Below are positions 8,679 through 63,403 of a DNA stretch of 64,000 bases, piece by piece. Position numbers and translations under genes: made by a program. The notes under the pieces were generated by a model, which made no database searches, had not been told where the DNA came from, and worked only from the letters and a program-made list of their open reading frames with translations. This stretch comes from Eledone cirrhosa (lineage: Eukaryota): positions 278,442,001 through 278,506,000 of the forward strand of contig OZ024740.1 of NCBI GenBank assembly GCA_964016885.1. Reading direction: 5' to 3'. Position 1 is the stretch's first letter. Every line of letters starts with the position of its first letter.

Positions 8679-9727
8679 TATACCAACCAAACTCTATCTG
8701 AATTCAAGAAAAAAGAAACATATTGCTACAGTATTTAATAATTCTAGAATTCATCCTCAACTTTTGACAAGACATTATCAGGAGGAATTCACTTTATACA
8801 CTTAACATTGATATAAGATAAATACATTATCTATCTTTGGGGTAGCAGTATAATTTCGCTCTACGGCTTTTAAACATTTCAATCATAACTCCTAATAGAA
8901 AGCTTTACTTTAATGATTAAACCAATAATCTTCTTAAATAGTTCCAGTGCCAATTTCACTCCACACAATGGAATCCTATACCTCCACCAATGGATGTATT
9001 TGACAAATATTGTTTAAATTGTAGGGGGCTATTCAATTCAAGACATTTTAAAATCGATTCCCAAACTAGGCGATGCGTAATGTCCTTGAGCAAGGCACTT
9101 TATTTCACGTTGCTGCTTCTGCCTGAAGTTGCGACCGACAGATAATATTAGCAATTGGAAAGACCAATGGAAACAATGTTTCCTCGGTCTGATTTGATGA
9201 CCTCCACCCCACTCGTTAAGCGATACATTTCAATATATATCAAATGGAATCAACTTGCATTTGTGGAAATATCATTGAAGTTACTAATACTCTCACGTCA
9301 CAGAAGACTTTGTAATTAGATTTCGGCTAGTAACGTTCTTAGCGATAAAGGTTAAATACTTTCGAGCTTCCCATTAACATCTGTTGTTTCCTAATTTAGA
9401 GACAAATTATTTTATTTTCAGTCAGAATATAAAGATGACATTACGCATGATAGATGTCAATTGCTTTAAGCAATTGTGTTTATGAAAGGATACACGTACA
9501 AATAAGCAACGGTACGAATAATACTCTTCATTAGTTCATTATGACATGTAATAAAAGGTCAGAAATGATACGATTCTCAAAATACAAAAGAGCATAAAAG
9601 CTTAAGTAATACTCTGGTTTGATATGTAAAACATTTCAAAGATTTTGCTTTTGATTTTATTTCATTTTGTCCTATATACACTCATGCCTGTATATATACG
9701 ACCGTACATGATTGAAATATGGAGTTT

Positions 9728-10329
9728 ACACTTTATCCAGCAACAACACAGGCCCTGTTCATTCACAAATTTTTATTAAGTTTTCGCTGTGACCTATTCT
9801 CTCTTTCTCTCTACTTGTCGCTATCAACTCTTCTCCTATCTTTCTTTCGCGCCCTTTCTCCCTCACACTTTTACTCTCCCTCTCTCTACTAGCTACCCCA
9901 CTACTTCCGCTGTTTTTCTCGACTGCCTCTCTTTTCTCTACTCTCGCGTAGGTCAGACCTGTTTTTTTTCGCTATCTGTTTCACCGTTCTTAAGTCCAGT
10001 AGCTGTTGTTGACAGCCTTTCTTTATCTTCCGTTGCTACTACACGTGCTTCTCGGTATGTTTTTTTCTGATTTTTTTCCGTTTTTCTTTCTTTTTTCCCT
10101 TCTGTTATATTTTTTTTTCTCTCTCTCCTTTTTTCCCCCAATAACTTCCTTTAGTCATTGACACACTGGAGCTAGACATCTTGTCTTTAATGCGTAGAAA
10201 TCTCCATGACCTCCAGAAGACAACTGATGAAGGGAAATCCCCCCCCCCCCACCGTTTATGCTTTCCTCTTATTTACAAGTACACTTTATCCAGCAACAAC
10301 GCAGCCCTGTTCCTTCACAAATTTTTATT
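9728..10329 (+). mobile_element. Non-coding element bounded by ~50-bp direct repeats (pLTR-like), carrying the permuted hammerhead-like motif
   Basis: tacactttatccagcaacaacNcag(g)ccctgttcNttcacaaatttttatta at 9728-9778 and 10280-10329. CT-rich interior; ends at a (CA)n(TA)n tract. Confidence 0.6.
10131..10240 (+). ncRNA. Permuted, pseudoknotted hammerhead-like RNA motif (family 1)
   Basis: ttttccc..caataact/agtcattg hairpin, acaca, ctggag cta gaca TC ttgtctt taatgcgta GAAA tctc catgac ctccag aagacaa CTGATGA agggaaa. Confidence 0.65.
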
Positions 10330-24027: not shown

Positions 24028-24122
24028 GACATATTACAATCATTTCTCTAGCGACCAGCTCGAGGCACGATTGATGTAATGATCGAACCTGACTCTGAAA
24101 TCGCAAGGTCGTCAGATACGTC
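24028..24122 (-). ncRNA. Type I hammerhead (same family as 34329-34424)
   Basis: gacgtat CTGACGA ccttgcga..tcgctaga GAAA tgattg TA atatgtc. Confidence 0.7.
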
Positions 24123-24159
24123 TCGATTCTACGAAGCAGAGTTTCCAAATATTTTACTT

Positions 24160-25230: not shown

Positions 25231-25545
25231 AAAATATTTTCGAAACAGCGAGTGGGTTTGAAATTATTAGAAATGTAAGCAATCGCCGTATTTTGACTAA
25301 TGAAATTATTTAGCCTGATAGTGGGGTTAAGAACCCTCGGAGAAATGGAAAAAGATGAGTATTGACGTAGATGATGATCATCATCATAATGATTATGTTG
25401 GGGATAATTACAATCACAAATATCTGAGTCTATATCTATAAAAATATATATATATTTATATATATATATATATATATAAGTTTATATATATAAGTTTTAA
25501 TAAAGATGAGATTCTACAGGACTAGAACTCTTTAGAAATCATCAG

Positions 25546-25598
25546 GGGATTCCTGATGATTTCTAAAGAATGAAACAGTTTTAGTCCTGTAGAATCTC
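25546..25598 (+). ncRNA. Type I hammerhead in the right arm of palindrome 25492-25613
   Basis: gggattc CTGATGA tttctaaagaat GAAA cagttttagtcctg TA gaatctc. The left arm lacks the GAAA segment. Confidence 0.7.
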
Positions 25599-25682
25599 AT
25601 CTATATTAAAACTTTTATACTTTCCTATGTATTGAGTACCTTACTTACTGTGGTTACCTCCGATTCAACCCGGAATAACTTA

Positions 25683-25732
<50 letters not shown>

Positions 25733-25761
25733 TAAGTTATTCCGGGTTGAATCGGAGGTAA

Positions 25762-50106: not shown

Positions 50107-50199
50107 TCTTCTTCTTCTTCTTCTTCTTCTTCTTCTTCTTCTTTTTCTTCTTCTTCTTCTTCTTCTTCTTCTTCTTCTTCTTCTTCTTCTTCTTCTTCT

Positions 50200-51247
50200 T
50201 CTCTCCTTTCTATCTCTCCTTTTCCCCCCCGTCAAACTTGGGCGAAATTCTTTCCTTGCTCACATTTCAACCAGGTTTGATGGTCTTTTGTCTCTTGTTC
50301 ACGATTTCACCGAGTTTATATTCATAGAGATCTGGGACTTGTCTATTTCTTCTCACTTTCCGTTGCTTAAACTTTTTTGTTGTTACCCTGGCGTCCCCTT
50401 TGTTTACGTGTCCCAACGACTTTTTTTAGCCGTTGTTCGCACCAACCCGAGGCATATGGCCCTTAAAGCGATGAAATGCCTAGGACGGTTGGAGGGTCAC
50501 CGATGAAGGACTCACTTTTTCATATGTATCCCATTTGCAACGCCGCAGCTCCATTATTATCATATTTACACATATATTTTTTCCATGCTGCCACTCGTCT
50601 GTTTCGTTCCTTGTATCTTTACCCTTTCTAGCAGTTTCTCTCTCTGTTAGCCTCCTCCTCAACTTTCACTCACTCATTCTCTGTCACTACCTCTCCTCCT
50701 CCTCTTTCCTCCTCCTCCTTCAAGTTTGACCTGTGTGTAATTCTTTTCTCGCGCGGTCTTGACCAAGCTGGTATGGAATTTTTTTCTCTCTCTCTTTCGT
50801 CTGCGACTTCACAAAACTTACGTTTACCGAATTCGTAGACCAGACCCCTTTATCTTCTTCTTCTTCTTCTTCTTCTTCTTCTTCTTCTTCTTCTTCTTCT
50901 TCTTCTTCTTCTTCTTCTTCCTCTTCTCTCCTTTCTATCTCTCTTTCCCCCCCCCCGTCAAACTTGGGCGAAATTCTTTCCTTGCTCACATTTCAACCAG
51001 GTTTGATGGTCTTTTGTCTCTTGTTCACGATTTCACCGAGTTTATATTCATAGAGATCTGGGACTTGTCTATTTCTTCTCACTTTCCGTTGCTTAAACTT
51101 GTTTGTTGTTACCCTGGCGTCCCCTTTGTTTACGTGTCCCAACGACTTTTTTTAGCAGTTGTTCGCACCAACCCGAGGCATATGGCCCTTAAAGCGATGA
51201 AATGCCTAGGACGGTTGGAGGGTCACTGATGAAGGACTCACTTTTTC

Positions 51248-51250
<3 letters not shown>
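50200..51250 (+). repeat. Two near-identical ~325-bp units (50200-50525, 50920-51250; offset 726), each preceded by (CTT)n and ending in the permuted hammerhead-like motif
   Basis: Direct comparison; few substitutions. Confidence 0.9.
51134..51240 (+). ncRNA. Permuted, pseudoknotted hammerhead-like RNA motif (family 2; sister copy 50408-50514 has core CCGATGA)
   Basis: gtgtcc caacgact..agcagttg ttcgca ccaacc cg aggca TA tggccct taaagcgat GAAA tgcct aggac ggttgg agggtca CTGATGA aggac. Confidence 0.7.
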
Positions 51251-51323
<73 letters not shown>

Positions 51324-52192: not shown

Positions 52193-54447
52193 CAGGGCTT
52201 CCCAACCTTTTTTCACTATGGACCCTCAAGCAGAATCCTTTTTCGCTATGGACCCCCCCCCCCCAAGAGCATTCAAAACTTAGGACATTAATTCAACAAA
52301 CAAAATGTATTCGTAATGATCAAAGAGTCCTACGGGCACACGTTTTTGGTGAGAGCCTTGTGGCTGTTTATTATTCACGAGAGCAGAAATCCGTGGTTGT
52401 AGGTCACTCGGACGGAGCCTCATTTCTGGATTATCGTTCAAGTGCAAGCTCCTTTGTTGCTTTGTGAATGAATGAAGTAAAAGCGAAAAGCCCTTCTCCA
52501 CCAAATTGGACATTGGTAGATTAATTATAAATGGTTCCACCTTTCTAAACAAGGTTTGATATTTGATCGAGCTTTGCAGCCACGCTTTGACCCAATTTTT
52601 CTCAGAGGCCTGAATCAAGCGCTCCTCAGCAATGGCCTCCCACAGCTCAATCTGGACGCATTCAGGTTGGTTCATGACATCCTCCATTGTCATGGTATGA
52701 AGTAAATCAACAAAGGGTGGTATGCTCAACTGTAGAAGATCCTCAAAACGAGTTTGAAAGTTATCATGCAAGAAAGACGAATGATCCACAATAATTGTTT
52801 GTAACTCACAATCAATTTCCTTGCCATCCAAACTAGAAAAATGACAGAAGTCATGCGTCATGGCTTTCATTTTCCAAATCACCAATTTGTTCATGAATGC
52901 CTTTATAACTTGTTTAGCACGTACGATGTTCATATCCTGGTTTTGCATGGATAAATTCAGTTCATTGAGTTTCCGAAACATCTCTTCCAAGTACAATATA
53001 GCAATCTTGTTATCAATAAGTGAATTCCTCAGAACAGTGTCTCTGTTCTGCAAAAATTCCAAAACTTTGTCAAACAGTACGACAAATCTCATGAGACAGT
53101 TACCCATTGAAAGCCAACGTACCTCTGTGGAATAAACCAGCCGATGAAAGTTTTCGTCACGACAAGCATCCTGGAAAAGCCTGTCTTGAAGGGCTCGTGT
53201 TCTTATTTTGTTGACGGATGAAACAACCGTTTGAAGAATGGCCATAAGATCACGGTTACCAATATTTTTTGCAACCAAATTTTCACGATGTAAAACTCAA
53301 TAGTAAACAATGAATAGTAAACACGCTTCTATCTTCAATTAATCTGCACACAAATCCTTTTCTTTTGTCGATCATTGACGGCGCACCACCTGTGAAAATG
53401 GAGATCATGTTATCCATGCTAATATCATTTGTCTTTAAAAAGCCGGTGACAGCGTTGCACACTTGTTCGCCTGTAGTGTTGATGGGAGTTTTCATAAAGA
53501 GCATCTCCTCACATATTCTGGAATCTTTGATGTAGCGGACAAAAGCAAGGAGCACAGACTGATTTGCAAAGGTACTTTCATCAACAGTTAATGAAAATTT
53601 GGTGTGTCGCAAGTCTTGAATAAGGATGGACTTGACATCATCTGCTAAATCAGTTATTCGGGATGAAATGGTATTGTTGGATAAAGGTATGCTGTTGAGA
53701 ACAGACTCTGGATTAGAAATATTAGCCACTTTATATGCTTCCATGATTGCAGGTTTGATGAGGTCCTCAGCAATTGTATGCGGTCGACCTTGTTTGGCAA
53801 TCAAAAGCGCAATATTGTACGACGCGGTGAGTCCAGAAGCGCTAGTGCTCTCGATGAGGAATCCTTTCAATTTTGATGAGGAAGAACGGGCACTGTCACT
53901 GAGCGCTTTGAAGTATTCTTTAGGTTTGTTGACCAATGAGGGATGACACTTGTTGAGGTGTAAAGAAAGTTTGGCGGGTTTCATTGATGCATTCGTCAGT
54001 TGTGTCAAACAAATAAGACACTGTGGTAGTAATGGATTGTTCTTGCTGCTAATAAATCCATATTGAATATAAGAGGGATCATACTGCCTACATTTCTTCT
54101 TGCTTTTGCTCATATTTAATTGTTATGGGAAGAAACCTAAAAGAGAAAAATGCAATTAAGAAGCTTTTTAAAATTTACAATTTACAATTCAAATTCCAGA
54201 AATGAAGACGTTTCTTCTTGATGCTTGAAAACGTATGTACCGTACTTAAAACGATTTAATTGAAAAGGAAAGAAAATAATTGAAAATATTAAGAAAAGTG
54301 CAATAACTTTTACTAAATCAACTCATTTATTATACATTTAATTGTGTACATTCCATTATGTACATTTAATTCAGCATTTTTCTGTGGTCCCCTGTAATCG
54401 CGCCATGGATCCCTGGGGGTCCACCTGGACCCCGTTGGGAAGTCCTG
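52193..54447 (-). mobile_element. Full-length Buster/Charlie-type hAT transposon, inserted into a SINE head
   Basis: TIRs cagggcttcccaac / gttgggaagtcctg; 8-bp TSD ccttaacc / ccttaact with central TA. Confidence 0.92.
52280..54113 (-). pseudogene. hAT transposase (zf-BED + DDE), frameshifted near 53290, second catalytic Asp mutated
   Basis: RQYDPSYIQYGF, PQCLIC..SMKP.KL..HL...H, FSLTVDEST, FTGGAPSM (expected TDGA), HCLL|HRENL, TEVRWLS, LVEKGFS. Confidence 0.9.
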
Positions 54448-62332: not shown

Positions 62333-62949
62333 GAAAAGAGAGGTTTGAAAAACAAAGCTAGTCATAGGCCATCCAGTAGTATATATACATATATACGATT
62401 GTGAATATATGTGTGTATTTACATGTTTGTGTAAATACTCATGAGAGAGGGTTACACCTACTTGAAAACTGCGATGTTTGTAGTCTCACTTTCTTTTTAT
62501 TTATTGCTAGCTAATCGGCTTCGAAAGTTTAGAGTTGTTCTTGTGATACACAAATGTTTATCACTATGAAATCTGATGTGCAGGCACAATTTACGCAATT
62601 TTGTTTTAAACGCTAACCCCACCCAGCGGAAATAATGGTACTAACACCTTGAAGCAACATACAGATGGCAGGCATTTGTTGGGGCGGTCGATGTATCACG
62701 TATGAAGATTTTTATTCAGCAATAATAAAATAACGCCATCTCTGTAGTTTTATCACTCAGGAGTAGTATTGGAAAAAACATCACAAATCTTTGGTTGCCG
62801 AAGCTGTTTCCTATGTTGAAACGTTGTCTGTGTCTGTTAGTAGCTGGAGCCTCGGTCTTGCTATATTGCTGTATGTATTTGTCATCATGAGAGCCCTTAG
62901 GAATGTATATATATATATATATATAAATAAAAATAGACAAGGGTTAAAA

Positions 62950-63053
62950 TGTCCTCTTCAGTAGTCTTCTGATTTATCGTTGGTATTTCGGCGCATTAAA
63001 GACTATATACCTAAAATCAGTGCGAGCGATAACTCAATTAAGTTATCGAGACA
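62950..63053 (-). ncRNA. Permuted, pseudoknotted hammerhead-like RNA motif (family 3), in a CT-rich element ~62925-63280 between TA tracts
   Basis: tgtct cgataact..agttatcg ctcgca ctgattt ta ggta TA tagtctt taatgcgcc GAAA tacc aacgat aaatcag aagacta CTGAAGA ggaca. Confidence 0.7.
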
Positions 63054-63403
63054 GTGGGAAAACGGGGGGAAGAAAACAAACACATGGTGGTATGCAACGA
63101 AAAGAGAGGAAAATTAGAGACAAGTCAATGAATCACGTGCGAATAAGCCCGACATATCAAATTGACGAGAAGAAATAGACACGTCCGAGCTGCGAGAAGA
63201 TTGAGAGAGGAAAGAAATTCAAGCAGGTCAGACGGGAGGAAGTGAGAGGGGGGGGAGAAGCAGAGAGGAAGCGAGTGAATATATATATATATATATATAT
63301 TATATGGATACATACACACACACACGGACACACACGTTTATATATAACATACATATATATATATATACACACACGTACACGTATATATATATATACATAT
63401 ATA

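Follow-up and report, generated by a model that had tools for sequence, protein, structure and literature searches.

A short RNA motif that recurs at four loci in a 64,000-nucleotide stretch of the Eledone cirrhosa genome (contig OZ024740.1; the whole stretch is hereafter called the window) is real, and its six helices are all backed by compensatory changes or by conserved pairing. It is a variant of the hammerhead ribozyme and no new class of ribozyme, well supported as a structure and with self-cleavage as its predicted activity. We consider it likely that the motif is a six-helix hammerhead which cuts in cis after the NUH triplet (after 51182 in the copy mapped in Table 1), which is housed in the 3' untranslated region (UTR) or pseudo-LTR of a subset of the Naiad Penelope-like retrotransposons, and which survives in Eledone as genomic tandem units. 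What is new is the split of the CUGANGA–stem II block with its four-way junction, the presence of such an RNA in animal DNA genomes, and the link to Naiads.

Read from 5' to 3', the motif consists of e', a hairpin, a stem II strand, b, stem III, NUH, stem I, UAA, stem II, GAAA, stem III, b', stem I, CUGANGA and e. A sequence-only reading of the window had located four loci with these helices, which are present at those coordinates, and had proposed a pseudoknotted hammerhead core in the order NUH, GAAA, CUGANGA, a proposal upheld by the four loci and by the support for the helices described below. The cleavage positions that it predicted (after 10180, after 51182 and, on the minus strand, between 63006 and 63005) are correctly placed. 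Its CUGANGA core is exact in three of the four loci, the 50408 copy reading CCGAUGA (U4C) instead, and the 10131 copy, although present, is decayed, with CACA in place of CGCA and one mismatch in stem III. The same reading missed stem II, having taken CGCA and the UAAWGCGNN 'linker' for separate unpaired pieces when they pair with each other in a CGCA/WGCG helix; the e/e' pairing that it described is an additional helix. Simple minimum-energy folding is incapable of displaying these pseudoknots.

Table 1. Map of the motif and of its copies in the window (positions count from the first nucleotide of the window)
Feature	Position	Strand	Remarks
e' strand of the open closing helix, partner 51234-51237	51136..51139	+	equivalent 4-8 bp helix in 8/8 Naiad loci
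Inserted hairpin, after e' and before the displaced strand of stem II	51140..51161	+	84.4% of cells paired; two-sided change in 5/7 pairs
Displaced 5' (10.x) strand of stem II, partner 51193-51198	51162..51167	+	pairing across copies
b strand of the bridging helix between stems II and I ('I' helix), partner 51213-51218	51168..51173	+	two-sided change in 6/6 pairs
5' strand of stem III with U16.1-H17, predicted cleavage after 51182 (AUA)	51177..51182	+	
Stem I strand d, partner 51219-51225	51183..51189	+	94.8% paired; two-sided change in 6/6 pairs
UAA linker and 11.x strand of stem II	51190..51198	+	UAA and the 16-nt spacing H17-G12 agree with the published type-CSG alignment
GAAA core and 3' strand of stem III	51199..51206	+	
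b', d', CUGAUGA core (51226-51232) and e strand	51213..51237	+	
One complete non-coding monomer of 726 nt, cleavage site to cleavage site	50457..51182	+	
Entire tandem insertion: 5'-truncated unit, full unit, 3' end into (TA)n	50165..51251	+	
Upstream tandem copy of the ribozyme	50408..50514	+	core U4C
Second-family copy, partly decayed	10131..10240	+	unit ~9727-10314
Third-family copy	62950..63053	-	5'-truncated unit ~62921-63246

The helices were evaluated by comparing diverged copies. Pairing was found in 90.1% of the 925 cells of 32 diverged copies picked by hand, against 76.5% after shuffling (0 of 500 shuffles attained the observed level) and 31–47% after sliding. Two-sided changes affected 22 of 29 pairs in the same copies, and compensatory changes were seen in all five helices scored. 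A further analysis used 102 of 130 copies, those with an intact 5' part (the 28 left out were truncated or had no relative), grouped in 29 clusters, and here stems I, II and III, as well as the bridging helix, each exceeded 5,000 of 5,000 strand permutations; the clusters are mutually related, so that shuffle controls exaggerate the significance. Among the top 30 mutual-information pairs of these clusters, just 7 are predicted pairs.

The rules that govern hammerheads can be followed at positions that the search had left free. U16.1 is present in 99 of the 102 copies and G17 in none of them, with an NUH triplet in 120 of 130 copies of the enlarged set; GAAA, CUGANGA and the GCG half of stem II had been prescribed by the search pattern and do not count as independent evidence. 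Stems I and III flank the predicted site and show covariation, and the tertiary contact that hammerheads make between stems I and II is supplied by b/b', where all six pairs show two-sided change.

Exact matches to the linker–GAAA–core pattern number 17,012 in the 3.0-Gb genome (8,554 + 8,458), as opposed to 2 for the reversed control (0 + 2). The full structural descriptor matches the window three times and each of 100 dinucleotide-shuffled windows not once, and a covariance model picks exactly the four window copies, three of which were in its training set. In addition, the motif family is present in a second organism (three contig runs of unrecorded type). It is extremely improbable that all this reflects a chance order of short words in an ordinary repeat, multiplied by copying. 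Copy number by itself is no proof where a repeat is concerned, and the word pattern does arise by chance in large collections, as in 30 viral contigs; however, the helices accompany it in 0 of the 29 viral matches that could be scored, whereas the Eledone copies carry compensatory changes in every helix scored and the same layout reappears, in unrelated sequence, at eight independent Naiad loci. The motif had also been expected to escape standard hammerhead descriptors, which was borne out: the Rfam hammerhead families (types I–III) gave no match at gathering score in the window. A scan by E-value placed none at the four loci among the 150 of 244 matches listed, which were microRNA and other repeat-driven matches.

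The most unusual element of the fold is the position of stem II. Of 129 copies, 94 allow the six bases preceding GAAA four to six of six pairs with a displaced strand (22 nt upstream of the UAA linker), and only 6 allow them at least four of six pairs with the bases after A9 (that is, after CUGANGA). A stem II directly 3' of CUGANGA, as in the published type SGC, is ruled out by the latter count and by the presence of 0–1 such pairs in 8/8 metagenome Naiad matches. The pairing pattern points to a stem II strand that, instead of its usual place after CUGANGA, has moved to the 5' end, with the open stem and the hairpin lying between A9 and G10.1 and probably creating a four-way junction. In all eight metagenome Naiad matches stem II closes with G10.1–C11.1, while the genome families have the helix with a variable first pair. 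In these families position 11.1 finds its partner in the displaced strand in 19 of 102 copies and in the base after A9 in 80, the second pairing not being significant over the 29 clusters (it was reached by 641 of 5,000 permutations). The four-way junction may accordingly sit one pair away, slid along the helix, in most families of Eledone cirrhosa.

In hammerhead chemistry the 2'-OH of H17 attacks, and the ends left are a 2',3'-cyclic phosphate and a 5'-OH. For the RNA considered here, folding would take place within one molecule and the cut would follow the NUH triplet, with the two ends of the RNA meeting in the open helix e/e'; this helix and the hairpin would enter the A9/G10.1 step as a four-way junction. 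Its connectivity would be that of a type-CSG core reopened at A9/G10.1, in which a short linker closing after stem III would yield the linear order S-G-C.

Minimal Penelope hammerheads cleave as dimers and the Eledone copies are arranged in tandem arrays, both of which favour the possibility, on the whole doubtful, that this hammerhead cuts efficiently only if tandem units swap strands to form a dimer or multimer, or if the protein of the element is bound. The partner strands nevertheless all lie in a fixed short-range register inside a single unit of 105–150 nt, and the helices are long (up to 13 bp for stem III, up to 11 bp for the bridging helix), unlike those of minimal dimer-type motifs. 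The Penelope hammerhead of the lizard Anolis cleaved only in the presence of protein, its cleavage being unneeded for insertion in vitro (PMC11167929), and insertion past the cleavage site in 130 of 152 Eledone copies would fit slow or regulated cleavage. On the other hand, the SGC and CSG RNAs already published, whose strands are connected in the same ways, cleaved during transcription with no helper protein (PMC10085705). Weighing against the predicted cleavage, eight of nine predicted frog retrozymes failed to cleave (bioRxiv 10.64898/2026.07.22.740005).

In the Eledone genome the copies sit in pyrimidine-rich tandem units, spaced mostly by 505–726 nt, whose longest ATG frame spans 32–129 codons (three monomers examined). 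Homology among 134 copies is confined to the tandem units or to duplicated flanks. A reading frame linked to the genomic units was looked for and ruled out, the neighbouring frames being parts of other elements, and the units of the window do not combine the N-terminal GIY-YIG, CxC, DKA/G and RT that characterize a Naiad within one element. They do display the marks of Penelope insertion, namely (TA)n targeting, 5' truncation, tandem and inverted insertions and a tail. Among 58 loci (the first in genome order from two pattern searches), an inverted copy lies at most 1 kb upstream in 13 and a convergent one in none; the 3' ends enter (TA)n, clustering 14–16 nt (10/58) and 62–65 nt (8/58) past the core. 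Inversion junctions fall at the predicted cleavage site, or at most 7 nt from it, in L025, L092, L093, L039, L096 and L015. Such insertion marks are common to other EN+ Penelope clades and therefore do not name the helper.

Insertions begin downstream of the cut, at a distance of ~65 or ~115 nt, and extend well beyond the cleavage site in the 130 of 152 copies mentioned above, from which the template would be an uncleaved multimer or a circle. Eleven 5' ends fall in the 9-nt bin at the predicted cleavage site and 42 in the following 12 bins (152 of 163 copies counted, 9 having been dropped for want of a close relative and 2 for an internal deletion), a weak enrichment that is only a hint, given that the bin was picked post hoc, that 2 of the 11 were misassigned on inspection and that TA microhomology confounds 3.

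These data also bear on whether the motif has become a hammerhead-derived recognition element for the reverse transcriptase, with cleavage lost at least in the Eledone families, which we regard as improbable. The start of insertion at a fixed distance downstream would suit a motif that positions the enzyme, the G10.1–C11.1 pair is gone from most Eledone families, and another Penelope element inserted in vitro without cleavage (PMC11167929). Against this, H17 varies among A, C and U while avoiding G, and U16.1–A15.1 is retained, which amounts to a catalytic constraint; the whole core is likewise retained in Naiads whose longest aligned segments are 27–63% identical, and the enrichment of 5' ends near the cleavage site, suggestive only, points the same way. 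With cleavage in cis as the preferred reading, the ribozyme would persist in Eledone in the non-coding tandem units of 505–726 nt, multimeric transcripts would be cut into monomers that possibly circularise, and copying of the monomers into (TA)n would be the work, in trans, of a reverse transcriptase/endonuclease of Penelope type.

Non-coding tandem units bearing Penelope marks make this a retrozyme-like family. The non-LTR retrozymes of animals consist of non-coding units that lie in tandem, measure a few hundred bases and hold one ribozyme each (bioRxiv 10.64898/2026.07.22.740005), and they have been proposed to be non-autonomous derivatives of Penelope elements (same preprint, and Cervera and de la Pena 2020 as cited there). 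The Eledone family shares with them the non-coding tandem units and the ribozyme in each. It differs in the ribozyme itself, since retrozymes, in the available parts of that preprint, are defined and searched by type I hammerheads only, whereas the Eledone motif is non-circularly permuted and not of type I.

According to Craig et al. 2021 (PMC8557442), Naiads lack a canonical hammerhead; the available portion of that description goes no further than marking elements as 'core' or 'half core', the second of these for 8 Naiads that include an octopus and a squid element. In the supplement of that paper the six-helix layout can be recognized by eye in Naiad_Amil, Aacu and Anas (near-identical coral elements), in Naiad_EuTe (clam shrimp), in Naiad_Obim and Ovul (octopus) and in one further record, being weaker in Naiad_Esco and variant in Naiad_Bfor; the survey took in the passages around core words and thus a part of the 54 consensi, and no prevalence is derivable from it. 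Nematode Naiads in the same supplement have, by eye, the ordinary block order with a long stem II. As a separate observation, some spider and ostracod Naiad 3' regions (supplement parts 16–19, by eye) have GAAA before the core and a bridging helix on the 3' side, and are nearer to the published type SGC.

An independent set was obtained by going from a decayed Naiad frame of the Eledone genome to 8 Naiad proteins, from these to an alignment and from the alignment to 80 metagenome loci, where a descriptor permitting either stem II arrangement gave 8 sense and 0 antisense matches, with a shuffle mean of 0.1 (40 shuffles). The motif lies 137–457 nt after the matched frame in 7 of the 8 and upstream of the frame in the other. 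All eight have the displaced 6-bp stem II opening with G10.1–C11.1, the e/e' helix and the hairpin; the bridging helix is clear in six, the script finding just 2 contiguous pairs in L236 and L277. Five of the eight carriers have uninterrupted EN-before-RT frames of 861–946 codons, and N-terminal GIY-YIG, CxC, DKA/G and RT occur together in one element in 5/8. The core is entire in these carriers even though their longest aligned protein segments are 27–63% identical. The ribozyme site would be the 3' UTR or pseudo-LTR in a subset of Naiads.

That the carriers are a subset is clear from the metagenome Naiad loci whose 3' sequence reaches 200 nt or more: of 48 such loci, 7 have the motif and 41 are without it, and CUGANGA is absent from the 3' sequence of 40. 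At gathering score, Rfam gave nothing in the 32 of 41 motif-less loci that were scanned, and 0 matches in 40 Naiad loci with all eight carriers included. The motif-less Naiads may hold other, undescribed ribozymes and are a pointed place to look for them.

Descent of the Eledone units from Naiads is suggested by the common architecture, by older copies with an octopus-Naiad-like stem II and by a weak model match. The older copies are rare (L079, L104, L110, L113, L115, L117 and L118) and their stem II strand is that of the octopus Naiad motif (in the available consensi); L115 joins a stem II strand of this type to a 10131-type body. A covariance model built from Eledone copies ranked L236 first of the 80 Naiad loci, weakly (E 0.06), and missed the other seven carriers, for which reason sequence does not prove homology between the genomic and Naiad sets. 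Naiads (PMC8557442) and the Eledone units have in common the (TA)n target, 5' truncation, tandem and inverted insertions and a tail; Naiads carry an EN-RT frame and the units of the window do not. Searches for an intact Naiad in the Eledone genome gave broken copies only (the counts are lower bounds, one of them with a stricter first look). No ribozyme is recognisable behind the decayed copies, a look-alike near the frame end having proved to be without the core once aligned. By eye, these Naiad remnants resemble the published octopus Naiads (PMC8557442).

The window also contains features outside the motif family. A 613-codon open frame at 25762-27600 (+) resembles, by eye, a Penelope-type RT with a C-terminal GIY-YIG region, and its clade is a candidate helper; it has no Pfam match at 0.001. 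A related family of motifs with the ordinary order CUGANGA...GAAA is found at ~4761, 24249, 24842, 25056, 28880, 29588, 29767 and 35360. Of two inverted repeats at 25500-25610 and 25648-25766, one pairs a CUGAUGA...GAAA motif with its own complement, and the other surrounds a (TA)n run and is the source of the top false microRNA matches. A separate repeat family with GAAA upstream of CUGASGA, outside the descriptor, is found at 34306-34342 (+), at 24109-24145 (-) and in L152. Finally, two broken frames (279 and 338 codons) at ~52200-54440 (-), flanked by short terminal inverted repeats, look by eye like a hAT-type DNA transposase and have no Pfam match at 0.001.

As to novelty, a search of the full-text literature, with most subscription papers outside its scope, found no report of the layout, of an animal hammerhead in the SGC order or of a Naiad ribozyme, and the available parts of PMC13725137, PMC11472068, PMC10162972 and PMC3088659 contain nothing closer to the layout. 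We hold it quite likely that the motif represents a connectivity outside the six permutations of 2023 (through the split CUGANGA–stem II block and the four-way junction at A9/G10.1), an overlooked ribozyme of a Naiad subset in cnidarians, arthropods and molluscs, the basis of a high-copy retrozyme-like family outliving its parent element, and the first abundant non-circularly permuted RNA of animal genomes. The non-circular RNA permutations reported until now are those of virus-like RNAs in metatranscriptomes, of two sequences from metagenomes and of a single, doubtful case in bacteria, and the Eledone family places such a permutation, with a high copy number, in the genomes of animals. It further offers a testable answer to the apparent absence of hammerheads from Naiads, and is relevant to the design of genome-wide ribozyme searches. 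The A9/G10.1 step may bear the RNA ends together with two extra helices, which is of interest for hammerhead structure and engineering.

The order of the core, which the sequence-only reading had believed undescribed, is that of type SGC of Eckert et al. 2023 (PMC10085705), a type there shown to cleave; of the 'new topology' that had been claimed, only the difference in fold brought about by the split CUGANGA–stem II block stands, the order being known and the ribozyme class not new. In that work the hammerhead was split in blocks S, G and C, the CUGANGA–stem II block being taken as indivisible, and the arrangement S-G-C was named 'type SGC'; five such RNAs cleave, at 0.007–0.19 per minute, and in the available text they are known from metatranscriptomes only. 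Type SGC (HRIMA-1 and the SGC variants) and the Eledone motif have the same order of cleavage site, GAAA and CUGAnGA, a short linker from stem I to stem II, and a helix bridging stems I and II with one strand preceding d'. They differ in that stem II of type SGC uses the bases directly after CUGAnGA and its bridging strand is 3', whereas both lie 5' in the Eledone motif, which has an open helix and a hairpin inserted at A9/G10.1, a step where HRIMA-1 bears an additional U (PMC10085705). The S, G, C order is thus present in Eledone, while block C is not intact and the bridging partner is found 5' of stem III and not at the 3' end; a descriptor modelled on the published type SGC gave 0 matches in the window. 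Moreover, the Eledone motif is found in animal DNA, with more than 17,000 copies, and in retrotransposons.

Type CSG, represented by two metagenome sequences (PMC10085705), shares with the Eledone motif the succession of stem II strand, bridging strand, stem III, NUH, stem I, UAA linker, stem II and GAAA, as well as the 16 nt from H17 to G12. It differs in block order, the Eledone blocks following one another as S, G, C and not as C, S, G, so that the internal connectivity alone matches; the Eledone motif has its ends between A9 and G10.1, and its stem III is linked to b'. Since the path from the displaced strand to GAAA is that of active CSG RNAs and the link from stem III to b' is that of SGC, the insertion at A9/G10.1 is the sole feature of the predicted ribozyme that goes beyond the RNAs tested in the available account.
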